DNA from: Candidatus Zhuqueibacterota bacterium
GTDB lineage: Bacteria; Zhuqueibacterota; Zhuqueibacteria; Residuimicrobiales; Krinioviventaceae
NCBI GenBank assembly: GCA_016928775.1
Contig: JAFGKD010000043.1
Location: 1,834 to 65,833 of the forward strand
DNA length: 64,000 nt
Direction of reading: 5' to 3'
The stretch's first letter is position 1. The number at the start of each line of letters is the position of its first letter. A program made the translations under genes and the position numbers. A model generated the notes under the pieces. It was not told where the DNA came from. It did not search any database and saw only the letters and a program-made list of their open reading frames with translations. Shown one piece after another: positions 1 through 24,530 of the stretch.

Positions 1-1818
1 AATTTCGTCACTGCCTGGATCAATCGTCAGCAGCGCAATGGAGGCATCGCTGAACGACAGCTCCTGTTTGAGAAGACCGATCCGTTCCGGCGGCAAATCC
101 GGTTTGTCTAACAAATAGGCCATAAGCGTCACGTTGATGTTAACAGCATAGTTTTTAAAATGTATCGTATTGCCCGTCGCATCTTCTATCCACACGTCAA
201 TCTGCAGATTTTCACCTTCTTTACGTTTCGCTTTGAGTGATCCGAGCAGCGTTACTTTGAGATTCGATGTATCCGGTCGAATGAGCTCCGAGCTCTCGAT
301 TAAAAAAGGATCCGAGACAGGACCAACAATAAAGTCATCTGGATTTTCCAGATCCTTTTTCTTGAACTGGAGCTGCGCTTCCGCCACATCCGCCAATCCT
401 GCTATATTAAACACCATGGCATTCAAACGACGCACGGACAAGGGCTGGCCGATGGTTAGCGCGTCAAGGGCCTCCGTGATCCCGGTGAGAAATTCCTGAG
501 ACGCCGCAGCCGGTACTGTGAGATCGGGAATGACATAAAACGTTCCCAGGATAAACACCGTATTAATCACTTCCAAACGCGCCATCACACCGGCGGCGCG
601 GGTTAAATCGACCACTTTGGCGACCTGCTCAGCATCACCACCTGAAAAACGTACCCGAACCTCTCCCAGGGGAATATTTTCACCGGAGTTGAAATCGACA
701 ACCTCAACACCTTCAACACCATCGACATCGAGAACCGCATATTTGATGGCGTTTATTGTTGCATTTCCCGAGCGCTCCAAAGCGTGTTTGGCGCGCTCGC
801 GCAATTGGTCATCCGGTTCGGCACTCTTTCCCTCGCTCGTTGGCTCTTCGTTGACAACACCATCTATACCAATGGGCGGAGTCGGCATGATGACGATGGT
901 CCCGGCGTTCACATTACCTTCCGGGCCGACTTTTTCGGCTTTTATAGCGACTGTCACGCTTTTGGGCTTGTAGCGAATTTGCAGCTCTTCGGTCGGACGC
1001 ACGTCGTCAGCCAGGGTGATGGTGCGTTCATCTTCTCCATAAGGATAATCCGTCTCGGTATCCTTTATATCAAATGGTGTGTCATTTTCGGGATCACCGC
1101 TGCGCAGCCAGATGCCTTCCAGTTCAGCAATTTTATTTTTGACGTTGATGAGTCCATCGAGTTGATAATCAAATTCAATTCGAACGGGTTCTATTTCACC
1201 CGCTTCCGTGGTCACAAAAGATCGATCACTTTCGTCGGTGACGCGAGTTTTTTCTTCAATCAGAACAGATGTCGTGCTAGCCTTTTTGCGGTAGAATGTG
1301 ACGTGCCCGATGGCATGGATATCCGGATTTCTCTCAATTCCCAGTAGCGCAACAACATTATCCAGGGCGACGCCAGTCGCCTGATCGATAAAGGCGCGAC
1401 GATACGCCTGATCCATCTGCTCATAAATTAATTTCATCTCCCGCGAGACCGCGCGAATGAGCGTTCCGACCACACTGCCTGGATTAAAGTCGGTTAATCC
1501 CGCCGGCCGTTCGCGGTAGGTATATTCTACTTCGAGTCTGGTACCTTCATCAGGGAACTCGGTTGGGTGAATCCATATAATGCGATTGTTGCTGAATCGA
1601 TAGTGCGATCCGGCCTGAAACACGGTAAAGTTGGCTCCCATGCGACCGCTGACTTGCAAAATAGCATAGGCTGTTCGCGGCAATTCGTAGGACAGGACAG
1701 AGCTTTTGAATGTAAATCGTGCGCGATCGGGCTGTTCCACGCCGTCCCGAATGCGCTCTTCAAACGCTTCGATCAAATCTTTATATTGTACAGAAAATGG
1801 ATGACCCGGATCGATCAT
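1..1818 (-). CDS. Baseplate J-like (gp6/Afp11-like) protein of the phage-tail-like cluster. 5' partial in this window: the ATG is at 1818 and the gene continues past coordinate 1.
   Basis: The minus-strand frame starting at ATG 1818 (overlapping the upstream gene's stop as ATGA) has no stop codons in the stretches checked (1-360 and the first ~46 codons from the ATG). Translated N-terminus: MIDPGHPFSVQYKDLIEAFEERIRDGVEQPDRARFTFKSS... The plus-strand ORFs here (170-499, 617-973, 784-1347) look like antisense junk. Position immediately after the gp25-like gene matches the W-then-J order of P2 and eCIS baseplates. Family assignment is by synteny, not by motifs. Confidence 0.45.
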   Translation of the reverse strand, partial: MIDPGHPFSVQYKDLIEAFEERIRDGVEQPDRARFTFKSSVLSYELPRTAYAILQVSGRMGANFTVFQAGSHYRFSNNRIIWIHPTEFPDEGTRLEVEYTYRERPAGLTDFNPGSVVGTLIRAVSREMKLIYEQMDQAYRRAFIDQATGVALDNVVALLGIERNPDIHAIGHVTFYRKKASTTSVLIEEKTRVTDESDRSFVTTEAGEIEPVRIEFDYQLDGLINVKNKIAELEGIWLRSGDPENDTPFDIKDTETDYPYGEDERTITLADDVRPTEELQIRYKPKSVTVAIKAEKVGPEGNVNAGTIVIMPTPPIGIDGVVNEEPTSEGKSAEPDDQLRERAKHALERSGNATINAIKYAVLDVDGVEGVEVVDFNSGENIPLGEVRVRFSGGDAEQVAKVVDLTRAAGVMARLEVINTVFILGTFYVIPDLTVPAAASQEFLTGITEALDALTIGQPLSVRRLNAMVFNIAGLADVAEAQLQFKKKDLENPDDFIVGPVSDPFLIESSELIRPDTSNLKVTLLGSLKAKRKEGENLQIDVWIEDATGNTIHFKNYAVNINVTLMAYLLDKPDLPPERIGLLKQELSFSDASIALLTIDPGSDEI

Positions 1819-2243
1819 AGTTCCTCCAGATTCATATCGTAAACCAGGTTTAACGGTGTCGGCTCGTTGATGAGCTGGATGTCCATGCTGAGCCGAACGA
1901 CATCGCGCTCGCCGGGGATAACCCGTGTGCGGACCTCTTTGACCTCCAGCACCCGCGAATCCCCCTCAATCGCGCTACGCGCAAACGCCATAAGCATCAC
2001 GTGCGTGCGATTGTTATTGGGCTGACCGATCAGCTCGTGCAGTCGCGAGCCGTAATTGGGCCAACCGAGGGGCGCCAATTCGCCTTTTCTGATGTGCAGG
2101 CGCAAAATCAATGCCTGGATAATATTGTCGTTGCCGCGCGCCAGATCAATATCGCCGGCCGAGTCCGGGATCAGATCAAATCCCGGGGCGCGCTCGACAA
2201 GCTTGAGGTCGTTGCCGAAAAGTTTTTGACGGTCTGTTGGCAT
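1815..2243 (-). CDS. Baseplate wedge protein, GPW/gp25-like
   Basis: 142 aa. Size and sequence character (…RGNDNIIQALILRLHIRKGELAPLGWPNYGSRLHELIG…) are typical of the gp25/GPW lysozyme-like family. It sits between the PAAR-like and J-like genes, and its stop overlaps the next start (ATGA). Confidence 0.65.
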   Translation of the reverse strand: MPTDRQKLFGNDLKLVERAPGFDLIPDSAGDIDLARGNDNIIQALILRLHIRKGELAPLGWPNYGSRLHELIGQPNNNRTHVMLMAFARSAIEGDSRVLEVKEVRTRVIPGERDVVRLSMDIQLINEPTPLNLVYDMNLEEL

Positions 2244-2288
2244 AATACCATTGATATAAGTTAGCTAATACAATTCATTAAGATTATT

Positions 2289-2783
2289 TCATTCTGAACA
2301 AAATACAAAATCCTGATTTTCCACGGTTACAGTCGAATTCATCGGCTCGCCTAAACCGTCACACGTATCTATTTTATCTCCATCCAATAAGACGGATGCA
2401 CCACCAACCTTCACAAATGAACTACCAGATGTCGAACTGGGATTACCTTCGCCGATTGTGTCAGAGATACTAAGTGATAGTGGAATTGGCGCCGGAGTAA
2501 TCGGTAAAAAGTTGCTACCCATAGGTCCGGAATGTTTACCGGTTGGGAAAACGTCTTCTCCTGGATTTAGTGTGCTTTTACTATTTTTCAATGCTATTGG
2601 CTTTCCGTCAATATGTGCAAAATCTGATAATTGATCAGTCATCTTGCCTACGTAATCAAAATCACCGACTCCAGCATAAGGTATAGTGGGCGGAGGAGCA
2701 CTCGGGTTTGTCGCATCTCCTTCGACATTATGCTTATCGACTCCCTCCACCTTGTCATTTTGAACGACAATCAGTTTTGCCAT
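2289..2783 (-). CDS. PAAR-like spike-tip protein (putative)
   Basis: 164 aa, Gly/Pro/Ser-rich. It lies directly downstream of the gpV-like spike gene, as Afp10/Pvc10 does in eCIS loci. The N-terminal segment (LIVVQNDKVEGVDKHNVEGD) and C-terminal segment (VGGASVLLDGDKIDTCDG) resemble PAAR-like beta-wedge repeats. Confidence 0.4.
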   Translation of the reverse strand: MAKLIVVQNDKVEGVDKHNVEGDATNPSAPPPTIPYAGVGDFDYVGKMTDQLSDFAHIDGKPIALKNSKSTLNPGEDVFPTGKHSGPMGSNFLPITPAPIPLSLSISDTIGEGNPSSTSGSSFVKVGGASVLLDGDKIDTCDGLGEPMNSTVTVENQDFVFCSE

Positions 2784-2788
2784 ATCGA

Positions 2789-3457
2789 TTACGCTTTATT
2801 AAAGTCTATTGTATCGCCTTTGATTATTACTGGTTGCCCAGATGCATCAATCGTAAAAGGTACTTTTGCATGAATATTAAAAGCTTCTTTATTCATTTCG
2901 ATTGAATTTTCATTTGAATCGACAATCTTTATCATTTCGGCTGTTATTTGAATTTGTGCCTCGCCCATTTTAACTTCGATGTTGCCGCTCTCGCCATCAA
3001 TTTTAAAGGATGTTTTTGCTTCGCTGTTATCTTCCGGTTTCGTCACATCGCGCTGCAGGTAGATAGTGCCATCGTTCATAAAACGAAAATGATTCAACGT
3101 GCCGTCTGGAACGCGCTGTTCAAATAAAATCTCGTCTTCGTGAAACAGCGGCGGTCGGTCATCCGCGTGGTAAAAACGACCGGAGATGACCGGCTGATTG
3201 AGATCACCGTTGACAAAATGCACCAGCACCAAATCGTTCACTCGCGGCGGTGCGACGATGCCGATATGCCCCACAGCCACCGGGACTTTGAGCAGCTCCA
3301 GATCTTCGTGCTTGAGCTTGACGTTAACTTCATAGTTATACTCGTCATCCTCGGCCTCGTGGGCAAAGATAGCCGTCACCACGCCGAGCAGCGTTGTTCG
3401 CTGACGCGCCAGCTCCTGTCGCACCAGGTGACGGATAATGTCGAGCAGTCGACTCAT
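2789..3457 (-). CDS. Baseplate assembly protein V / gp5-like central spike (OB-fold N-domain)
   Basis: 222 aa. The N-terminus (LLGVVTAIFAHEAEDDEYNYEVNVKLKHEDLELLKVPVAVGHIGIV…LVLVHFVNGDLNQPVI) matches the phage gpV / gp5 N-terminal OB-fold family. It overlaps the upstream hub gene by 4 nt. Confidence 0.65.
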   Translation of the reverse strand: MSRLLDIIRHLVRQELARQRTTLLGVVTAIFAHEAEDDEYNYEVNVKLKHEDLELLKVPVAVGHIGIVAPPRVNDLVLVHFVNGDLNQPVISGRFYHADDRPPLFHEDEILFEQRVPDGTLNHFRFMNDGTIYLQRDVTKPEDNSEAKTSFKIDGESGNIEVKMGEAQIQITAEMIKIVDSNENSIEMNKEAFNIHAKVPFTIDASGQPVIIKGDTIDFNKA

Positions 3458-4491
3458 TCGTTTACATCCAGCGAGATTCGCACATCGGTGACAAAACCAA
3501 TTCCTTCGCCAAATCGATGTCGGATCGCTCGCACGTAGCCGCTGCCGTCGATCAGGTCGTCGGGCACGTCACTCGAGCTGATCGAGTCGCCGAGATCGAT
3601 TTGGGCTTGACCCAGTACGGTGATGGATATCTCGTGCGCGTTTCGTTTGTGGGTTGCCAACAAGCCGGCGGCAAAACGATCGGCCAGGTCTTTGGTGCGC
3701 GCTGCCGGATCGCGCACCAGGATTTGGGGCGATCCGTCGCCTGCTTCACCGCGATAATCCGAATCATTGATGGTGAGCCAGTGCGATGTCGTATCGCCTT
3801 TTCCCGACATCGGGCTTTCACCACCGACGTCAATTTTGCGCCAAGCGACCGGTTGTCGATCCGCCGCCGCCTGTAAAAGATGTTGCTTGTAGACAAAGCT
3901 CAATCCGGCTCCGCCCAGGGCGCCAGCGACAGCACTTCCCAGGCCACCGAGACTGTCCAGACCGGCGGCGGGGCCGAGCGGGTGAAACATGATATTGCCG
4001 TTGCGATCTGTATACAACTCGTAGCCCAGCCGATCCGCCAAACTCCTGAGATGTTCATAAGCGCTGATTCTGTTATCCACATAATAACGTGGAAATGTGA
4101 CGCCATTTTCGACCGTTCCTGCGGTCGCCCCCGCTTCATTGATCAGATGATGTGCGATGTCTCCGGCACTCTGGTTTTCAAAAGTCGCCGAGGTTCTGAG
4201 ATTGAGCAAAACGTTCATGTGACCCAACGCCTGAATCTCCACCGCTGCTATAGCCGGTTTGAGCGCAACAACATTGCCGGTGAAAACAACCTCCTCATTG
4301 CCGTCGTATCCCAGCTTTGCACTCACGGCATTATCCAGCGCGATACCCGATCGCTCCATAAGCTGAAGGCGTAAAACATCGGCGGGGATGTCCATGTCGC
4401 GCTCGATCACAAGGTTTTTTATGCCGGCCACAGGATTGTCTGTACTGGTTAAAAGGCTGCCGATCTCCAATGTTAAAGTTGGCTTTACCAT
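3454..4491 (-). CDS. Phage late-control gene D (gpD)-like baseplate hub (gp27-like)
   Basis: 345 aa, gpD/VgrG-N-like in size and composition. It immediately precedes the gpV-like spike, as in P2 where D and V form the hub-spike pair. It directly abuts the Rhs gene (stop at 4492, start at 4491). Confidence 0.6.
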   Translation of the reverse strand: MVKPTLTLEIGSLLTSTDNPVAGIKNLVIERDMDIPADVLRLQLMERSGIALDNAVSAKLGYDGNEEVVFTGNVVALKPAIAAVEIQALGHMNVLLNLRTSATFENQSAGDIAHHLINEAGATAGTVENGVTFPRYYVDNRISAYEHLRSLADRLGYELYTDRNGNIMFHPLGPAAGLDSLGGLGSAVAGALGGAGLSFVYKQHLLQAAADRQPVAWRKIDVGGESPMSGKGDTTSHWLTINDSDYRGEAGDGSPQILVRDPAARTKDLADRFAAGLLATHKRNAHEISITVLGQAQIDLGDSISSSDVPDDLIDGSGYVRAIRHRFGEGIGFVTDVRISLDVNE

Positions 4492-6810
4492 TTAAATGCC
4501 TCCGTGGGCGCGGGCGTCTTGTTCCAGCCAGGCATTATAATATCCATTAAAAATGACGTCCCATATATAAACGCCCCAAATCGGCAGACCAAATAAAAAG
4601 AACGGCCCGAACCAGCCATACTGATTGGTATGCCGGAGCTCATGTTCGTATAATGCCTTGTTTCTGGGGATGGACACTCTGCCGCCATAAGATGATGGCG
4701 ATACACTGCCCGAACCGGATAAATAGGCATTGCTCCTCCAATCGCCGTTTACAAAAAATACATTGCCAAAAGTAATTCCGGCAAAAAAGGGCAACGAGCC
4801 AAACCATCCTCCTTCAAAGACCAATGCAAAGGCATTCAACCGGCCCGACGCCGCGACATCAAATCCGGGCGTCGCCCATGACACATTGCCAAAGGTGACG
4901 AGCCAGACGAGCCAGCGTATCACTTCGCCAACAAGGCAGGTAATCTCAATGATGAGCCCGATGAGCGTATTGGGCAGCGTCCAGATGGCGCCGAGAATCG
5001 ACAGCAACACACCGCCAAACGACCAGTGGCCGTTGGGATCAACGTTATTCACCGGATCGTTTGAACAAAAAGCATAGCGGTTTTGTACGCGCGGTTGTCG
5101 TTGCCAATCGGTCAAAATATGGGCGCGCGCGGCCGCCTGCCGGCTCGCTGGACCAAAGGGATTGACGATACGGATGTCATCCGGACGGCCGGTGTAAGAA
5201 TCCGGTGTGAGGAAACGGCCGTGAATCGGATCATACCAGCGGGCGCCAAAATCGTACAGCATGAGCTCCGGGTGCCAAAATCGACCTTTGTAAATGGGTG
5301 CAAAATCACTTGTAGACAACGAGGGAACACCAAATGGCGAGTAGGTGAATTCGGCAACCGTCTTTCCCGATGTATCAGTCACGAGGTAGCACGAGCCATG
5401 TTCATCCTGGTGCCGAAAAAAGAGCACTCCCGAATCCACTGAACCGTGGATTTCGCCCAACAGTCCCAACGGAGTGCGGATGTAGAGGCGCAACGGTTCA
5501 CCAAACTCATTGGTGACGGCCAATAACTCATCCGCCGGCCCATATAAATAACGTTCTGTCCGGTGCGGATAGTGCGCTAACACCAGGCGGCCCTTGTGGT
5601 CGTACAGAAATTTGCCAATAATCTCGCCATTTTTGGATGCCCGCACAAGCTGACCGGCATCGTCGTAGCGATATGTCCAGCACTCGACACCGCGCTTGAT
5701 CCTAACGGGCTGGCCGTGCCCATTGTAATCAATGGTGACGTGTACACCATCGTCGCCTTGAATCTGCAACAGTTGATTTTTTACATCATATTTATATCGA
5801 TACGCGCCAGTCGCGTCCGTTGCGCTGGTTCTATTGTCCACAGCATCATAGCTGAACGACCAGTGCGACTGCTGCTGTTGTTCATGAACATCGACCAAAC
5901 GACCCAAAATGTCATAGTTGTAATCGCAGAGACCATCATTGATGATCTGGCCAATGGCGTTGTATGTGTAGTGGCGTTGAAACAGGATATGATTGTTCTT
6001 GTTTTTCACCTGGCGAGCAACCGTGCGACGATCTATGGGATCGGCGCTGCTTTCTTCAACAATATGGTTTGCCAAATGAACGCGCGATTTCTTTTGCTTC
6101 TCAAGGTACTCGTACTGCGCAATTGGGGTATTTTTTATCACTACGGTTTGCGGACGGCCTTTTTCATCCCATTGATACTGCACCGGCGCGGAACTGCCGG
6201 GCAGAAACATATTTTTCAATCGACCCGCATCATCATATTCGAGCGTGAGTCTTATGGTTAAACCCATGATCGACTGCGAGATCTTATTGACGCGACCCTC
6301 AGCATCGTATTCCTGCTTTGTATAGACCTCGGGTGTTCTGGCCACCACGATGCGTCCATGCTCGTCGTAGCGATACACCGAGGCGCCGCTGTTGCCGATG
6401 CGAGCTGTGGTCAATCGTCCCTTTGGATCAAAATCAAAGTGACTGATCACACCGCGGTCGTTTATCTGGCAAAGCCGGTCATTTTCTCCATACGTATAGC
6501 ACGTTCTTGTTTTGTCCGGATGGTGAACCTCAATCAGGCGGCGCTGTTCATCATATTCAAAACTGGTTTGGCAGCCATTGGGATCACATATTTGACTCAC
6601 ATCGCCCCGTTGGCTGTACGCATAGCGGAACGTACCCCCGCCGGTCTCGGCAACCTCTTTCACAAGACCGCAATCATAACACACTTGCCGGCATTTTTGC
6701 TGGTGGTTCATCCAGGACTCGATGCGATCGAGCGCTTCCGTTTGCGCCTGGTTTGCAGTCGCTATTTTTTCTGAAAAACTATTGTACTTTTTTGTTTCCA
6801 GCCTGTGCAT
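4492..6810 (-). CDS. Rhs/YD-repeat protein with RHS repeat-associated core and a C-terminal variable hydrophobic HExxH domain. Putative cargo/effector of the contractile system.
   Basis: Numerous YD repeats (YRYDEHGRIV, EYDAEGRV, YDDAGRL, YRYDDAGQL, YDHKGRL…). The canonical core end is present (…YDPIHGRFLTPDS…NRYAFCSNDPVNNVDPNGH). The ~190-aa C-terminal tail is rich in predicted TM/hydrophobic segments and contains HELRH (an HExxH motif). Confidence 0.8.
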   Translation of the reverse strand: MHRLETKKYNSFSEKIATANQAQTEALDRIESWMNHQQKCRQVCYDCGLVKEVAETGGGTFRYAYSQRGDVSQICDPNGCQTSFEYDEQRRLIEVHHPDKTRTCYTYGENDRLCQINDRGVISHFDFDPKGRLTTARIGNSGASVYRYDEHGRIVVARTPEVYTKQEYDAEGRVNKISQSIMGLTIRLTLEYDDAGRLKNMFLPGSSAPVQYQWDEKGRPQTVVIKNTPIAQYEYLEKQKKSRVHLANHIVEESSADPIDRRTVARQVKNKNNHILFQRHYTYNAIGQIINDGLCDYNYDILGRLVDVHEQQQQSHWSFSYDAVDNRTSATDATGAYRYKYDVKNQLLQIQGDDGVHVTIDYNGHGQPVRIKRGVECWTYRYDDAGQLVRASKNGEIIGKFLYDHKGRLVLAHYPHRTERYLYGPADELLAVTNEFGEPLRLYIRTPLGLLGEIHGSVDSGVLFFRHQDEHGSCYLVTDTSGKTVAEFTYSPFGVPSLSTSDFAPIYKGRFWHPELMLYDFGARWYDPIHGRFLTPDSYTGRPDDIRIVNPFGPASRQAAARAHILTDWQRQPRVQNRYAFCSNDPVNNVDPNGHWSFGGVLLSILGAIWTLPNTLIGLIIEITCLVGEVIRWLVWLVTFGNVSWATPGFDVAASGRLNAFALVFEGGWFGSLPFFAGITFGNVFFVNGDWRSNAYLSGSGSVSPSSYGGRVSIPRNKALYEHELRHTNQYGWFGPFFLFGLPIWGVYIWDVIFNGYYNAWLEQDARAHGGI

Positions 6811-6851
6811 TATTGCGCCTGAATTTTTTCGTAAGCATTCAACTCAAACCA

Positions 6852-9800
6852 TTAGACCGGAATCGCGGCGAGCATGGCGTCAAAGGCATTGCGCACGCGA
6901 TCCAGTTCTTTATCAAAACTCACGGCCAGGTTATCGAGCACGCGATTCAATCGTTCCAAAAGCTCGACAAAGACCAGATTTTCAAATTTATCCAAAATGC
7001 CTTTAAGGCTGTCGAATGCATTGGCAATGGTTGTTTTCAAGCTGTCAATTATCGTTTGAATTTCAGCTCGAATAGTCCTGAACGTTTCATCAATCACGTC
7101 TACGATATCAGCAAGGATATCCTTGATGCTTTGAGAGACAGCGGTGACTGCTTTATCAAAGACCTCATCGATTTTAATTTTAATCTGCGTCGGATTTAGC
7201 TCTTCAAGCGGCGCGGTCAAGGGATCATAAAAATTGGTTTTGAGTGAATTGGCCAATTCCTCGGGATCGAGTATTCGCACCTTGTCGCGAATCGTCTGGT
7301 AGATATCGGCCACCGCATCGTTGAGCGAGAGCGGATTGATGAGCATGATGATCTCGCGGATGTTCGCCAGGAAGCCGTTCATCGCCGGCTCCAGAACCTC
7401 TTCCATGGGCTTGAGTTGCTGAAGAAACCGTTCCAGGGCCTGTTCAATCCGCACAGCCTTGGCAGTGGGCCGCATTGAATAGAAACCGGACAAAATCTCC
7501 TGATATGACAAGGGTGTCGGGTGCCACAGAAAATCGGGTAACATACGATCCAGGTTATCCCGCAGCGAACTGTAGGCTTCTCCTACAGCAGAGATATCCA
7601 GATCATTAATCTTTAAACGAAGGGAATCCAAAAGTTGATTGTGCGTCTCGATCAATTGATGAAAAGGGCTGTCGGGCAAGGCTGGATCAATGAGCTGAAA
7701 AGTATTGTCAAAGGCTGCCAGGGTTGTTGCGATGTTTTCCTGAACCTCCGGCGGCGCATCTGCCACTTTGTTTTCAAATGACATCTTGATGCCGGGCAAA
7801 TGAGCCGGCAAACCCAGGAGTGCCGTTGGGATCAGCTCAACGAGTCGACTCTGACCATTGCGAAAATGATTGATAATGGCTTGTGGATCGAGCAATTGCA
7901 ATCCCACACCAATGGTCTCGCGAATGCTGTTTATCGTGTCGGTCAGCACTCCCTGATCCACAGACTCGATCATATCGAGTAATCGGTTATAAAGGCTATC
8001 CAGGGGTTGAAAAACTTTCGCTATATTGATTTGTGTCCTGAATTCGACGCTCAGATTTTTCAACTCAGTGTCAGGATCGCCGAAAATAGCGTCCGTCAGA
8101 CTCTCTAAAAAAGGACGCAATTCATTGTAAAAAGTATCGAGCGGGTCAGGCAAGTTTAAATTAGTCAACGAATCAAGAATCTTGCTGCGAATATCGGCGA
8201 ACAAGGCTTTTTGCCGGACGTCGAGTTCATTGAGAACCGGCGTTATATCGACATAGGAGATGAGCTGATCAATTTTTTCATACAAAGCGTTCAAAGGCGT
8301 CACCCATAAATCCGGACCCAGTCGATTCACATGCTGCATCATTGAATCATAGGGTGCCTGCAATGGATCTAAAATGTGTCCCGGTGAAATGGAGGTCAGA
8401 GATTGGGTGAATTGATCCACCTGTCCCTCGAGTGGTTTTAGCAGAACCGTACCGTTCAATTTTTGTACCAATTGCGCGACGTGGTCTAGCAGGTCCGTGA
8501 CGGGCTTGAACAGTTCATCAGAATCCAAAAAGCCGATTTTTTCCAGCATCCGTTCCAGGACAGCAGTGATTTTATTTAAAATCGCTTTCATTTCTTCGGT
8601 CAATGTACTAAACGCCGATTTCAGTGCGTTGATCACTTTGGATTCGAGCTCCAGCTCCTGTAAAAAAGCGAGCGCCGCCTTGATGGCCAGTTTTTCGGCA
8701 GAAGAGAGAGCATTGGGATTAATCTCTTGTAATCGTCCCTTCAGCTCGTCGATCTCTTCAATCACCTCATCACTCAATGGCTTGAAGCTCAATTGGTCTA
8801 ATTGTGAGATAAATGAGGTGAATGTATCCATGTAGCCGGCAAGTGTTGTTTCGATTTGATCGATCAAGGTGCTAAGATCAGCAATGAGGTCGGTTAATTC
8901 GCTTGAAATGCCAGCAATCGGTAAGTTTTGTACGGTGCTCAATACCTGATTGACCGTGCTTCCGACGTTATTCTTTAATGTTTCATTTATATTGTCGGTG
9001 ATAAATGTTTCAATACTTGTAAAGGCGTCTTTGATGTCGTCACCAATTTGTTCGATGCCTAATGAATCCAGTTCCTGTTTCACCCGGGTCAACATCTCTT
9101 CCACTGTTTGTTGAACCGCCTCGGTCGGTACGGATTCAATGGCTTGCCGAATCTGAGTGAGAAAATCCAGCAGACTGGAGCGAATTTGTCCGAGGGCAGA
9201 ATTCTTGAACGAATCAAGCATGGTCTGGCTCAGGCGTTCGATGCGTTGGGTAATATCGTCAACGCCAAACATCATGTAAAACTTGCTCAACAGGTCTTCC
9301 AGCATGCTGACCATATTATCAATGATTTGATCGATCGAGAACAGCCTGCCCGGATCAATGGCTTGCAGCAATGATTGATATGTGGAAAAAATGGTGCTCC
9401 AGGGATGCGTTCCGATTAAACTCTGAAGTTGTGAATAGAGTGAATTCAGCGCACTCGATACGGATTGAATAGCGGTTTCCACTTCACTCAGACGAGTTTG
9501 AATGGCCGTATAACCGTTGATATCAGCCGGATCAAGGGATTCGATATCGGTTAAAAGTCCGGTTATTGCGCTGACGATGGCCTGCCGTGCGGGATCGAGA
9601 GCAGTAGCGAGGGATTCGGGCGATAAAGGTACCAATACGGCGTATGAAGAGTTGACGTGGTCGAGTGATTCGGTCAATAGATCCGGCGCAACGCCCAAAA
9701 GATTATCGGTGAGAAACGGCAGAAATTCATCCTGGTGTCCGGAAAAATCAGCGACAAAATTATCTATCAACGCAAGGGCGTTCTTGATTTGTTCGATAAT

Positions 9801-20727: not shown

Positions 20728-22065
20728 CTAATCCTTCACACACCGAATGGATAATCCATCACGCTTTTGACCGTACCCCCGATAGACTTCCGCGGTCAGC
20801 CAACTCAGCTGACGATACCACGAGGCACTACTTATTACTTCCGTAAAAGTCCAGAAATAGGCCTGGTATTCAAAATTTTCAAAATCACCGTTGTCACGAC
20901 GATAGCCTGCCGGTAACGCGCACAATCCACTTGTATTTGTGGCACCGGTATTGGGACTCTCCCAATGGGCATAACCCGCTTCTTTCATTTTTCCGCCTAC
21001 ATCTGTTCCTCGCCAACTCTCGGCATCGGCTTGTACACGACTCAAACCGAGATAAATTTCCAGCTGCTTCCAGTCCTCGTCCGTCGGAACATGCCAACCA
21101 ACCGGGGCAATGTTGCGACTGTCATTCACTGCATACCAGTTATATAAATATCCAAAAGTGTCTTTCAATCTCTCGTTAGTGGTTAAAGCACAATAGGCAG
21201 CGGTGTTTAAATCGCTCCATTCCAAATCGTCAGTCACTTTGGGTATGGATTCACCGTTTCGGTAGCGGGTCACTTTCAAGTTTTCCGCCATCCACCATTG
21301 ATCTCCGATTTTGACAATGCGATATAAATTCCCGTCGATATCTGAAATGGGTGCTACTTTGGGGATAACCGTAATATAGAGCAGCGTATCCGAATCGATG
21401 AGTAGCCTGTGATGTTCATAGGTTTCAATATTTTCACCGGTGATTCGCAATGTATATTCCCGTGCGATGCGACTTGCACCATTCTTGTCAAGTCCTGCAG
21501 CGATACTGACAGATGGAGTTATGCTGCCGCTCCCCCTGGCATGTGCCAAAAGGAGCATTTTTCGGTTCAATCTGATTTTGTCAGACGTCAAAGTACAGAC
21601 ATAGACGCCGGCTGGAACGGGGTGGCCACGTTCATCGATACCATCCCACCTGATGTGCTGCAAAGTATTCACCTGAAAGCCACTGAATAGTGTTTTTACC
21701 TTTTGCCCCAGGGTGTTATAGATCACGACACTGATCTCTGATGGCTGCGATAATTGCCATGTTATGAACGTTGATGGGTGAAACGGATTTGGATAATTCT
21801 GAAACAATTGAAAATCTGCTGGCTGCTGTGCCGTCATTTCCTCGACACTCGTTTCTATTTGAAAAATAAATTGCCCGTTTTCATCTGTATAATCCTGATC
21901 ATTACGATTAGGATCAGCCAGGTCGACTAATTCAACCCTGGCGTTCGCAACCGGTTTCGGATCTGTGTCGGTGACCAAACCCGTGAACGTTATATTACCT
22001 GATGCGGTTTTCATGAATGCAAAAAGAAAGAACAGGATAAAATCGATACATTTCAAGGTTTTCAT
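20728..22065 (-). CDS. Secreted multidomain protein: signal peptide, CarboxypepD_reg-like domain, an internal T9SS-CTD-like domain, then a Fibrobacter-succinogenes-major-paralogous (FSMP) domain
   Basis: Signal peptide MKTLKCIDFILFFLFAFMKTASG. An internal NYPNPFHPSTFITWQLSQPSEISVVIYNTLGQKVKTL…KIRLNRKMLLL segment falls at about aa 90-170. The C-terminal 200 aa match the FSMP pattern (GNLYRIVKIGDQWWMAENL…YLYNWYAV…GWHVPTDEDW…GLSIRCVKD). Confidence 0.65.
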   Translation of the reverse strand: MKTLKCIDFILFFLFAFMKTASGNITFTGLVTDTDPKPVANARVELVDLADPNRNDQDYTDENGQFIFQIETSVEEMTAQQPADFQLFQNYPNPFHPSTFITWQLSQPSEISVVIYNTLGQKVKTLFSGFQVNTLQHIRWDGIDERGHPVPAGVYVCTLTSDKIRLNRKMLLLAHARGSGSITPSVSIAAGLDKNGASRIAREYTLRITGENIETYEHHRLLIDSDTLLYITVIPKVAPISDIDGNLYRIVKIGDQWWMAENLKVTRYRNGESIPKVTDDLEWSDLNTAAYCALTTNERLKDTFGYLYNWYAVNDSRNIAPVGWHVPTDEDWKQLEIYLGLSRVQADAESWRGTDVGGKMKEAGYAHWESPNTGATNTSGLCALPAGYRRDNGDFENFEYQAYFWTFTEVISSASWYRQLSWLTAEVYRGYGQKRDGLSIRCVKD

Positions 22066-22090
22066 ATAACCTCCCGCAATAATTTGTTTC

Positions 22091-24319
22091 CTATCGCATT
22101 AATATCATCTTTTTGGTCGCAACGACTTTGTCGTCCAGTCGTAGTTGATAGCAGTATATACCGCTGGGGAGAATCCCGGCGTCAAAAGTGATCGAATGCT
22201 CACCGGCAGCCTGAAATTCTTTCACGAGAGTGGCGACCAGAGTGCCTGACATAGTATAGATTTTTAATGTGACAGAGCCGGAATGGGACAATGTATAGCT
22301 TAGCGTCGTGCTATTGTTAAATGGATTCGGGTAATTTTGCCCGAGTGACAAAGTACGGGGTATTGTTTCCCGCTGTTGCCGCAGACCGGTAACGAGATTA
22401 TTGCGGATAATATAGAGACCATCGTCGCCATCAGCTACATAGACGTCCCGGCCCTTGACCGCTACACCATATGGGATGTCACCGGTTGCATAAGATCCGG
22501 CAAGAAACGGCGAGCCGGGATTGGAAATATCAATAATAGTCAAGCCGGCAGTACCCACACAGTAAGCGTAATCACCGCTCACCGCTATGTCATAGCTATA
22601 ATTATAAGCATTAGCTCGGCAAACTTCAACAGGCAACGCCGGATCGGAGACATCGAAGATGCGGAGATACCCGCACGTCATATAGGCATACCCATTGCTA
22701 ACAGCTACGCCTGTCGGTTCACCGCCTGTACACTCACCCACATCTACTGGATTGGTCGGATCTGCAATATCCAAAATGCGTAATCCGTTATAGCGGATGG
22801 ACAAATAGGCATAATGACCATCGATCGCCACATCACTCGTCCACCAGCCATTGCAAAAATTGCATACCTCGAAAGGATTGGTCGGATCGGATACATCGAT
22901 GATGCGTACGAGTCCCCATTCATGGCTTTTATCCAAGGCAAAGACAAAATTGCCGTACATGGTGACGTCATGGATAAAATTATAGACTTCAAAAGCGCCG
23001 ACCTCGACGGGGTTGGCGGGATTGGAGATATTGATTATTCGCAAATCAGCAGCGCCGTCCGCCACATAGGCGTAATCCCCACTGAGGGCGATATCTGTTG
23101 GGCAACCGGGAGTATCACAAAAACCGACATTTTTGAGCTGGCCAGGATCTGAAATATCGATGATACGTAATCCGTAACATTGTTCAGCGAGATAGGCATA
23201 GCGGCCGCGCACAGCGACACTCTCGATGCTGCCGCTGGTATGGATAAAGCTGACTTGAGACGGAGCGCTCTTGTCTGCAATATCGACCACAACTAAACCA
23301 CTACCGCATGCCACGTAAGCGTACGTGCCGAAGAGGCTCACACCGTAAGGAGAACCGGGTACATTAAAACGACCGACTTGCGAGGGATGATGCGGATCTG
23401 CAACATTCAGGATGAACAGTGTACCGCTACGATCGCACAAATAGACGTAAGCATCCCGGATTGCCAGTTCATGGACGCGGACCGGATAATCAAAGTTAAA
23501 CCTTCCGACCTCGGCAGGATGAGTCGGAGAGGAAATATCGATAATGATCAATTTGTAGTACGAGATATCACTCACTGTCACATACGCATATGTCCCATCG
23601 ACGACGACGTCCTCAGCACTGTCTTCCGTATCGCAGGTACCGACAATAACGGGATTGCCGATATCTGATATATCAAAAATATGCATAAAGTTATCGTCTG
23701 CAATATAAACAAACGTGCCACTGACAGTTATACCAGAGGCATCAAAGAAATCAAGCAAGCTCGACTGAAACGGATTGGCCGGATCGGAGATGTTGATGAT
23801 GCTCAGACCTCTCCATCTATCAAGCACATAAGCATAATCACCACTGACAGCCAGGTCCTGTACAGAGTCTCCGGTATAAATAGAACCCTCAATGAAAGGA
23901 TGAGTCGGAGCCGAGACATCAACTATCTGCAATCCAAAATTGGTCACGGCAACGAAAACATGCGTATCATTGGCGACGATATATTGCACACTACCCGGCA
24001 ACATTAATTGGCTTAATTTTATCGGTATAGTTGGATCAGAGACATCTGCGATTTCAAGAGAGGCACCATTGCCGAAAAAGGCCAATTCACGTTGTACATC
24101 AACATCATAACATGGGCCGCAAGCCCATCGGCCAACGAGTGTGGTGTTGCTATCCCTGGCGCTGTGGTGCACGGTGTTGACGAGCGCTCTTTGGTCTTTG
24201 GTGTGGATGTGTGATTTCAAGTATGTGTCCGGGGAAGGAGTGGAGCGTGTTATGCCCGGTTTGACGAACGCTGCAAAAACGAGAAACAGGCTCAAAGTCT
24301 TGATGTTCACTGTGAGCAT
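22091..24319 (-). CDS. LVIVD-repeat beta-propeller protein with a T9SS C-terminal sorting domain
   Basis: Repeated ~45-aa units (…YAYV.D…GL.IIDISDP.NP…). C-terminus NYPNPFNNSTTLSYTL…VTLKIYTMSGTLVATL. The start was reassigned to ATG 24319 (MLTVNIKTLSLFLVFAAFV signal, AGGAGG RBS), rather than the ORF-track start at 24481. Confidence 0.7.
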   Translation of the reverse strand: MLTVNIKTLSLFLVFAAFVKPGITRSTPSPDTYLKSHIHTKDQRALVNTVHHSARDSNTTLVGRWACGPCYDVDVQRELAFFGNGASLEIADVSDPTIPIKLSQLMLPGSVQYIVANDTHVFVAVTNFGLQIVDVSAPTHPFIEGSIYTGDSVQDLAVSGDYAYVLDRWRGLSIINISDPANPFQSSLLDFFDASGITVSGTFVYIADDNFMHIFDISDIGNPVIVGTCDTEDSAEDVVVDGTYAYVTVSDISYYKLIIIDISSPTHPAEVGRFNFDYPVRVHELAIRDAYVYLCDRSGTLFILNVADPHHPSQVGRFNVPGSPYGVSLFGTYAYVACGSGLVVVDIADKSAPSQVSFIHTSGSIESVAVRGRYAYLAEQCYGLRIIDISDPGQLKNVGFCDTPGCPTDIALSGDYAYVADGAADLRIINISNPANPVEVGAFEVYNFIHDVTMYGNFVFALDKSHEWGLVRIIDVSDPTNPFEVCNFCNGWWTSDVAIDGHYAYLSIRYNGLRILDIADPTNPVDVGECTGGEPTGVAVSNGYAYMTCGYLRIFDVSDPALPVEVCRANAYNYSYDIAVSGDYAYCVGTAGLTIIDISNPGSPFLAGSYATGDIPYGVAVKGRDVYVADGDDGLYIIRNNLVTGLRQQRETIPRTLSLGQNYPNPFNNSTTLSYTLSHSGSVTLKIYTMSGTLVATLVKEFQAAGEHSITFDAGILPSGIYCYQLRLDDKVVATKKMILMR

Positions 24320-24530
24320 CGTGGCCTCCTGGACTATTTTTCTTACCTGAATAATGCAGTAACTTACAACAAATATCACATTCTGTTTCATCCAGAATAT
24401 CCCAAAAACCGTGATGCAGAACATTTCTTCACGCTCCTCAAGCGGAAAATCGGGGGTACATAATTCATGCTTGTGTTTCACGCGGTTTTTTTATATAATA
24501 ATCCGGTGAAAATTCAAGGAAAGGTCATGA

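Follow-up and report, generated by a model that had tools for sequence, protein, structure and literature searches.

Within a 64,000-nt stretch of Candidatus Zhuqueibacterota contig JAFGKD010000043.1 (the window hereafter, always meant at its full length), positions 4492–6810 of the minus strand are occupied by an Rhs gene that starts with ATG and, stop codon included, encodes a protein of 772 aa. The open reading frame (ORF), its translation, and its family matches all agree with a preliminary description of this locus, which had been drawn up from the sequence alone and assigned an Rhs protein with YD repeats and a canonical core tip: RHS_repeat (Pfam PF05593, E=1.7e-34), YD_repeat_2x (NCBIfam TIGR01643, E=2.1e-18), and, on residues 490–595, Rhs_assc_core (TIGR03696, E=1.9e-13, 50.7 bits at a cutoff of 32.5), the end of which reads NDPVNNVDPNGH. 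The protein is 100 % identical to a database entry (P0040) recorded as 'RHS repeat protein [candidate division KSB1 bacterium]'. The gene forms part of an operon with the order sheath, tube, three small genes, tape measure, Rhs, hub, spike, gpW, gpJ, and onward, and its reported location between tape measure and hub was borne out, as PHROGs and NF033848 identify both neighbours. The tape-measure protein (6852–10244, minus strand, 1130 aa) matches phrog_305 (E=6e-26) and ten further tape-measure families and is syntenic in all related loci, and the gpD/VgrG-related baseplate hub (3454–4491, minus strand, 345 aa) matches NF033848 (E=5.5e-15). As set out below, the Rhs gene is a syntenic, near-universal member of a contractile-tail gene cluster in at least eight phyla, and its product belongs, as a constant and lineage-defining part, to a phage-tail-like contractile injection system (CIS) that is uncharacterised.

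The Rhs stop codon (4492–4494) directly adjoins the hub start codon (4489–4491), and the junction (4489–4503, minus strand) reads GGAGG-CATT-TAA-ATG (GGAGGCATT-TAA-ATG), that is, with a Shine–Dalgarno sequence within the last Rhs codons. The adjacency of the two genes had been noted correctly; the arrangement points to translational coupling of Rhs and hub, judging from these letters, and not to the 'co-translation' that had been proposed. In the two related loci L061 and L062, the Rhs and hub ORFs overlap by 1–4 nt. Since the Rhs stop adjoins the hub ATG, there is no room for an immunity gene, and the statement that none follows downstream holds for want of any intergenic space. The sole candidate in another frame near 4400–4500 is an 81-aa ORF (4485–4730) inside the coding region of the C-terminal domain (CTD); its similarity across loci is what the 70 % conservation of the main frame would yield, and it was treated as not real. 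The GC content of the Rhs gene (0.511) and that of its third codon positions (GC3, 0.565) are like those of the adjoining genes and its position is conserved in at least eight phyla, so the earlier notion of a 'cargo gene inserted' into a structural operon had to be abandoned.

When one genome per species was scanned with the Rhs protein as query (the Rhs-selected set), ten full-length relatives and one contig-end fragment at 34–67 % identity were obtained, originating from Blastocatellia (Acidobacteriota), a gammaproteobacterium, Syntrophobacteraceae, several Chloroflexota, two Actinomycetota, and Spirulina. The order tape measure, Rhs, hub was found in all nine Rhs-selected genome loci with a hub within 10 kb, and tblastn with eleven tail proteins of the window recovered sheath, tube, small genes, tape measure, Rhs, hub, spike, and gpW wherever the hub was present (sheath about 52–63 % and tube about 61–80 % identical to the window). 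The identical cluster also occurs in two cultured isolates from different phyla, Pyxidicoccus sp. MSG2 (L061) and Flindersiella endophytica (L062), which makes experiments possible. Because these first loci had been chosen through the Rhs protein itself, the test was repeated with loci selected through the hub. A metagenome scan with a single hub protein as query found none, but a scan with a hub alignment (A6) did. Twenty of its loci, those with 2 kb or more of sequence ahead of the hub, were evaluable, and in 19 of them an Rhs core and CTD lie directly upstream of the hub. The lone exception, L051, is devoid of both the tape-measure gene and the Rhs gene, which appear to have been lost together; this locus (Ga0209168_10000218, 2437–11367) comprises sheath, tube, two small genes, a g201-like gene up to 7004, a hub from 7016, spike, gpW, and gpJ.

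Overall, the hosts span at least eight phyla (KSB1, Acidobacteriota, Pseudomonadota, Thermodesulfobacteriota, Chloroflexota, Actinomycetota, Cyanobacteriota, and Myxococcota). The family is discrete, with members at E≤6e-78 and the next generic Rhs protein at 2e-46, and a tblastn search of 50,697 phage records with the Rhs protein returned generic Rhs sequences at 22–27 % identity, none of them over the CTD, and no family member. The gene order, with the sheath first and the tape measure before the hub, resembles that of a P2/Mu-type tail or an R-type tailocin. An AAA+ ATPase was not seen within 10 kb downstream of the Rhs gene in four related loci (L003, L005, L061, and L062; the window itself ends within the baseplate genes), and the cluster therefore appears not to be a typical extracellular contractile injection system (eCIS). 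A literature search did not find an Rhs gene in a contractile cluster other than that of a type VI secretion system (T6SS), and the eCIS surveys and reviews searched do not mention one.

The architecture of the protein was modelled with AlphaFold2 (AF2) on the family alignment (predicted local distance difference test (pLDDT) 89, predicted template-modelling score (pTM) 0.75). It begins with a single long α-helix (residues 3–40; 6691–6804, minus strand; consensus EALxRxEAWL, as also supported by the alignment), a candidate docking or plug element for which a Pfam search with the isolated N-terminal 70 aa returned nothing meaningful. There follows a YD/Rhs β-strand shell of about 47 strands (residues 41–527; 5230–6690, minus strand), evident from the model, the repeat matches, and Foldseek against the PDB, which retrieved Rhs, TcC, and teneurin shells with E-values down to 2e-31. 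The alignment with the T6SS Rhs chain 8qja_D covers 586 columns of its 1021 residues, and TcC is the best match in size (target-normalised TM-scores of 0.60–0.62; 4igl_B 0.62); from this coverage and size match, the shell is judged to be short, reaching roughly 60 % of the length of its T6SS Rhs counterpart and coming close to TcC in size.

Next comes the Rhs-associated core tip defined by TIGR03696 (residues 490–595; 5026–5343, minus strand), in which an insert of ~30–35 residues (540–575; 5086–5193, minus strand) that includes a helix (555–570) is absent from the 76-position TIGR03696 model and holds invariant P543, D544, D545, R547, Q558, R562, L566, W569, and P573. Across 51 family members, D537, D591, P592, G594, and W596 are likewise invariant. 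Two-aspartate self-cleavage is established for TcC and RhsA, and by analogy these residues are consistent with the same reaction here; the predicted aspartyl self-cleavage site, DPNGH↓W (5023–5040, minus strand), lies between H595 and W596, in a linker of low confidence (AF2 values below 50 over residues 593–605).

What follows the predicted cut is a conserved CTD of 177 aa (residues 596–772; 4495–5025, minus strand), for which AF2 on the CTD alone with 27 homologues gave a confident model (pLDDT 90, pTM 0.85) of a hydrophobic helical hairpin joined to a zincin-like core: helices 603–615 and 617–643, a four-stranded sheet region (651–692), the HELRH helix (721–742), and two C-terminal helices. 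AF2 also placed the extended motif HExxHxxQ (HELRHTNQ) on a helix spanning 716–737 after strands 649–687. In the structure prediction, which the preliminary description had advised, the N-terminal ~60 aa, a possible loading signal, contain the single long helix of residues 3–40. That the post-core domain is hydrophobic was confirmed: Kyte–Doolittle values above 1.6 occur in the whole protein at residues ~610–632 alone (peak 1.85), with a weaker stretch at 736–755. The hairpin (residues 598–643; 4882–5019, minus strand) contains a W-x-L-P-N-T turn and conserved E622, E629, and R632, and its two helices measure 13 and 27 residues, set against a membrane-span criterion of ~20 or more. In 118 CTDs, hairpin residues W610, P613, T615, G618, E622, and E629 are kept in 91–99 %, and G735 in all. 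The hairpin is in fact the most widely retained part of the CTD, and in two more distant relatives (P0174 and P0183), the match is restricted to core tip, hairpin, and sheet region.

The reported HELRH motif is indeed present at residues 723–727 (4630–4644, minus strand) and is followed by Q730 in 113 of the 118 CTDs, giving the HExxHxxQ pattern of DUF4157. Further downstream, the sequence E763-Q-D765-A766 (4513–4524, minus strand) provides with E763 a candidate third zinc ligand of the gluzincin type; E763, D765, and A766 are kept in 108, 102, and 111 CTDs, respectively. All three of H723, E724, and H727 are kept in 104 of 118, and the CTD of the window has the full HExxH motif together with E763, D765, and A766. 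Matches to described families are faint. The window CTD itself matched nothing in Pfam at E≤10, a profile built from the CTD alignment found among PDB sequences the generic Rhs tips of mosquito SGS proteins and nothing else, and Foldseek of the CTD model against the PDB gave no match below E=2.5. The sole zincin-type Pfam family matched by more than two members is PF13699 (eCIS_core), with six distinct proteins of 47 (4 of 27 close and 3 of 21 distant members, one protein being in both sets); the best of these, P0038, scored 22.1 bits (E=1.8e-4) at a gathering threshold of 22, the other five had E-values of 0.15–1, and phmmer of P0038 against the PDB gave no match. Sequence resemblance of this kind suggests that the CTD is zincin-like and possibly a remote relative of DUF4157. 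Its fold would be related to M48 proteases and to the DUF4157/VgrG2b metallopeptidases, and zinc binding and peptidase activity are predicted. A protein of 2070 residues (P0236), for which neither a Pfam match nor a matched Rhs core tip was obtained, carries a DHELRHTQQYSWFGP motif at residues 1213–1252, and on the strength of this motif the zincin-like module may occur outside Rhs proteins, too.

The conservation of the protein runs in an unexpected direction for an Rhs toxin. In an alignment of 51 sequences (A2), mean pairwise identity is lowest in the N-terminal 60 residues (35 %) and rises through the YD repeats (44 %) and the core tip (58 %) to the CTD (70 %), the most conserved region of the protein. 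This gradient is the reverse of that of polymorphic toxins, and set beside the identities of sheath and tube among related loci, it shows that the CTD evolves like core machinery. The polymorphic-toxin logic on which the preliminary description had relied thus does not apply, given 70 % identity in the CTD against 44 % in the repeats; the C-terminal domain is not the variable part, and variability is confined to optional modules beyond it. Nor is the missing immunity gene the anomaly it had been taken for, as the hub starts less than 150 nt from the CTD end in 20 of 33 loci; with the CTD being the most conserved region, the lack of an immunity gene is a rule of the family.

In the other 13 of the 33 loci (~40 %), 1.1–3.9 kb lie between CTD and hub, and in those examined the interval is the same ORF continued after a Pro/Ala-rich linker. 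The window copy, which has no such C-terminal extension, is the minimal form of the family. Recognisable domains in the extensions include PG_binding_1 (P0086, L007, and L012), Peptidase_C39_2 together with PG_binding_1 (P0075), and a reprolysin-like metallopeptidase domain (P0167), and a search of PDB sequences with the extensions of the P0043 and P0086 types recognised the peptidoglycan (PG)-binding repeat alone; a CHAP- or NlpC-like peptidase, at first guessed for the P0043 type, was dropped as conjecture. The reprolysin-bearing variant has lost the HExxH motif of the CTD, reading EKLLRH instead. Between this reprolysin-bearing Rhs gene and the hub of L019/L020, a gene at 14288–14812 encodes a 174-aa HEAT-repeat protein, which is a candidate immunity protein and the sole such extra gene seen in the family. 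In L009, a high-GC actinobacterial locus, the 1588-aa Rhs ORF is followed by a second frame (14767–16146) with a domain similar to the extension of the P0043 type, which is either a gene of its own or the result of a frameshift in the assembly; within the Rhs ORF, a stretch (ESGG...GYGIGQLD) is putatively lytic-transglycosylase-like.

We favour, at a probability of roughly 0.5, a reading in which the Rhs protein bears a probably self-cleaved, hydrophobic, zincin-like module that is delivered to the envelope of a target cell, acts there, and carries optional toxins. A short Rhs shell made in the cytoplasm of the producer would hold or shield this module of ~19 kDa, in which a helical hairpin would pack against a zincin core of minimal size, and the core tip would probably free it by a cut at the predicted site. 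The firing tail would then bring the module to the target-cell envelope, with its action taking place at the membrane or in the periplasm. The CTD would also be where further, optional domains attach C-terminally, and as the window copy is minimal, the module itself would there be the sole payload. Immunity would conceivably be unneeded, since the module would do no harm while shielded in the cytoplasm, and the cell that makes the particle would not be among its targets. The C-terminal domain of VgrG2b, which belongs to DUF4157 and was found to be toxic in the periplasm but not in the cytoplasm (PMC6899460), may serve as a precedent for a zincin with such compartment-dependent effects.

Several observations weigh against this reading. 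In 14 of the 118 CTDs (12 %), at least one residue of the H/E/H triplet is lost with the hydrophobic hairpin being kept (RER or REK in four, HMH in five, HLH in two, as well as KLH, YAF, and YER). Catalysis therefore cannot be the universal function of the family, and the HExxH motif, rightly reported as present, is not indispensable. A comparison of the CTD with a 40-sequence DUF4157 alignment by hhalign reached a probability of 5.7 %, covering the HExxH helix only, and one with the 118-sequence CTD alignment under relaxed settings 17.6 % over 87 columns; because of these low probabilities, the CTD was not filed under DUF4157. The domains recognised in the extensions are limited to PG_binding_1, C39-like, and reprolysin-like ones, and the P0043 type and the L009 extension have no assignment. 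The ~490 residues of β-strand shell may not suffice to enclose a folded 19-kDa domain, and they certainly cannot enclose extensions of 400–800 residues, which strains the picture of a closed cocoon; as such extensions exceed any Rhs shell, part of the post-core region would have to lie outside, as in teneurins. An effector that is 70 % conserved across phyla looks unusual for a weapon and more like machinery. Finally, the presence and place of the Rhs protein on a particle, its self-cleavage, delivery, site of action, catalysis, and toxicity are all steps that we infer.

A more far-reaching version of the favoured reading, which we put forward tentatively and with more doubt than confidence, would have the half-size shell dock on the hub, spike, or tape-measure complex as TcC does on TcB. 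Firing would then feed an unfolded, self-cleaved, membrane-inserting zincin-like 'pilot' domain together with any fused toxin into the target envelope. The CTD would, accordingly worded, be a universal translocation or presentation module rather than a toxin, and the Rhs protein would be the signature component of an unrecognised, phylum-spanning lineage that is a hybrid of Tc cocoon and contractile tail.

Among the rival explanations, the one that fares best, and which we still consider rather unlikely, is that of a structural anchor: the hairpin would sit in the cytoplasmic membrane of the producer and tether the baseplate, PG-binding extensions would fix it to the wall, and the shell would be a scaffold, similar to the membrane complex of the T6SS, CisA in Streptomyces, or the thylakoid anchor of cyanobacterial CIS. 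The machinery-like conservation of the CTD (70 %), the near-universal presence of the gene and its translational coupling to the hub, the absent immunity gene, PG_binding_1 in several extensions, the 12 % of members that lack catalytic residues and keep the hairpin, and the AAA+ ATPase not seen within 10 kb would all suit such a role. Moreover, CisA is reported to show that a CIS can depend on a dedicated membrane protein (PMC12237407). The invariant self-cleavage residues, however, are difficult to reconcile with an anchor, as the cut would sever it from the shell. The first hairpin helix of ~13 residues and the long helix with E622, E629, and R632 are atypical for a plain transmembrane anchor, and some extensions are toxin-like, the reprolysin-like one coming with a candidate immunity gene. 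In the AF2 model, furthermore, the sheet, the HExxH helix, and the helix of E763 form one compact domain, which should prevent the chain from crossing a membrane between them and would leave everything from the Rhs shell to the C-terminus on one side, that is, in the producer, the cytoplasm. PG-binding modules at the C-terminus would be useless there unless delivered, and the model to this extent favours a delivered module over a self-anchor.

Unlikely, and partly overlapping with the favoured delivery of an envelope-active module, is a penetration device at the tail tip that opens the wall and membrane of the target for the tube and is thus a helper rather than a killer, comparable to phage tail lysins or the muralytic or fusogenic domains of tape measures. 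Phage T5 Pb2, which combines tape-measure, fusogenic, and muralytic activities, would be a parallel. The gene directly follows that of the tape measure and is coupled to the hub, and the joint absence of both genes from L051, the only locus without Rhs, suggests that tape measure and Rhs work together; PG-directed modules in the extensions and conservation at the level of machinery would fit as well. The Rhs shell would, however, be too wide for the tail tube, going by the dimensions of known shells, the minimal form in the window has no PG hydrolase domain, and the 50,697 phage records hold no family member.

The classical alternative of a polymorphic Rhs toxin, recently inserted as cargo and with its immunity gene elsewhere or lost, is largely refuted by synteny and the conservation gradient and can be considered very improbable. 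It has on its side the canonical core tip with an unannotated C-terminal domain, the variable C-terminal ends of distant relatives, and the existence of hydrophobic Rhs toxins such as Tse5, which is pore-forming with a hydrophobic, membrane-active C-terminus and was among the Foldseek matches (8cp6_B). Against it stand a position kept in at least eight phyla and in 19 of 20 hub-selected loci, a CTD that is the most conserved region, a composition like that of the adjoining genes, and a hub start no more than 150 nt beyond the CTD in 20 of the 33 loci. Scarcely credible is a module for lysis of the producer that releases the particles by a holin-like hairpin and endolysin-like, PG-directed extensions, since, even though hydrophobic helices and cell-wall-directed domains do occur together in some members and eCIS are released by lysis with effectors suggested as possible contributors (PMC8213781), lysis cassettes offer no parallel to an Rhs fusion placed between tape measure and hub, a domain that degrades the wall is missing from the minimal form, and the zincin core would be left unexplained.

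Compared with known systems, the closest resemblance is to Rhs effectors of the T6SS (RhsA of P. protegens, 7q97; Tse5 of P. aeruginosa, 8cp6; and VgrG-Rhs of Advenella, 8qja), with which the window protein shares the YD shell (Foldseek E ~1e-28 to 2e-31), a two-aspartate core tip with DPxG, a C-terminal payload, and the link to a contractile spike apparatus. It differs from them by having no PAAR, prePAAR, or VgrG fusion, by a shell ~60 % as long, by a family-specific core-tip insert of ~30 residues, and by a CTD that is conserved instead of polymorphic and comes without an immunity gene; moreover, it is encoded in a tape-measure-containing, tailocin-like operon with phage-type baseplate genes and not in a T6SS. 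TcC (4igl_B, 5kis_B, and 6l7i_G) is alike in size and is likewise a short Rhs piece with a C-terminal toxin that it cleaves and retains, but it needs TcB to close the cocoon and TcA for translocation, and its hypervariable region is polymorphic; no TcB-like or TcA-like genes were found in the window cluster or related loci. The teneurin YD shell with its Tox-GHH/ABD likewise has a C-terminal region leaving the shell, as the extensions must do here, but teneurins are eukaryotic, about twice as long, not self-cleaved, and without a contractile apparatus.

As for the CTD, DUF4157/PF13699 ('PVC-metallopeptidase', eCIS_core; VgrG2b C-terminal domain, Tpe1) has in common with it the HExxHxxQ helix after a small β-sheet and the connection to contractile injection. 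DUF4157 has been described as a core HExxH domain of eCIS, located N-terminal to toxin domains via long linkers, with its role left unexplained (PMC8213781); this placement ahead of variable toxin domains is reminiscent of the long members of the present family. The metalloprotease motif of one such protein, Cgo1, is reported to be dispensable (PMC11297309, citing Xu et al. 2022), so that in at least one case the motif would be as expendable as in the 12 % of CTDs that lost it here. In contrast, DUF4157 domains are free-standing or N-terminal, are usually encoded at the 3′ end of eCIS operons, and have neither an Rhs core fusion nor a hydrophobic hairpin. Afp/PVC-type eCIS, for their part, have an Afp15-type AAA+ ATPase, an Afp16-type cap, and effectors at the 3′ end. 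M48/M56 gluzincins and minigluzincins (BepA, HtpX, BlaR1, and proabylysin) share HExxH with a downstream Glu and a core adjoining hydrophobic helices, and differ in helix arrangement and biological context.

The single parts, namely Rhs shell, zincin-like HExxH domain, and contractile tail, are hence all known; it is their combination that is new, in which the gene keeps its place between tape measure and hub, the payload is not polymorphic, and the tail is modular. To our knowledge, Rhs shells have been known as toxin containers of T6SS and Tc systems, always with variable payloads and immunity genes. In the present case, the Rhs gene belongs to the constant core of a tailocin-like machine with a tape measure that occurs in at least eight phyla, its payload is more conserved than the sheath, and no representative of the lineage has been studied structurally or functionally. 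The locus is therefore less anomalous than had been held at first, as the lack of immunity has a simple explanation, and also more general, as the gene marks a widespread uncharacterised lineage. If the favoured delivery of a shielded module is true, it would represent a new way to arm a contractile tail, would provide a natural modular fusion point (CTD, linker, toxin) usable for engineered cargo, and may illuminate the role of DUF4157-type HExxH domains in injection systems.

Regarding the remaining genes of the cluster (all on the minus strand), the sheath (13050–15002) and tube (12524–13024) genes are the first of the operon and together span 12524–15002. Downstream of the hub follow a spike with a gpV-type OB domain (2789–3457, 222 aa; Phage_base_V, E=3.2e-6), a 164-aa protein without a family match at the position of the spike tip (PAAR; 2289–2783), and a gpW/gp25-like sheath initiator (1815–2243), which was assigned by a family match. 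Sheath and hub gave marginal matches at most to solved structures. The spike tip is the variable part of the cluster: the 164-aa protein matches the Spirulina locus L012 alone (66 %), and elsewhere its position is taken by two unrelated small genes or, in L019, by a PAAR_motif protein. Between the tube-proximal genes and the tape measure, 10865–12004 encodes a low-complexity protein of 379 aa with a high content of Ser, Pro, and Gln; similarity of this protein to any related locus was not detected, and a gene of 354–425 aa always occupies that slot. In L061 (22201 to its end) and L062 (20734 to its end), the cluster closes with a Peptidase_S8 (subtilase) protein of ~1650 aa.

Divergent from the sheath gene, a TldD/PmbA metalloprotease pair is encoded at 15738–18646 on the plus strand. 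Promoter and terminator scans of 1500–15800 gave counts at chance level, and the best promoter-like match of the region (15327–15300, minus strand) lies between the sheath gene and this pair. Farther along the window, two proteins encoded on the minus strand at 20728–24481 and 27977–28918 carry sorting domains of the type IX secretion system, one with Fib_succ_major and the other with LVIVD repeats and Por_Secre_tail; together with a PorV-like protein, they show that the host has a type IX secretion system.

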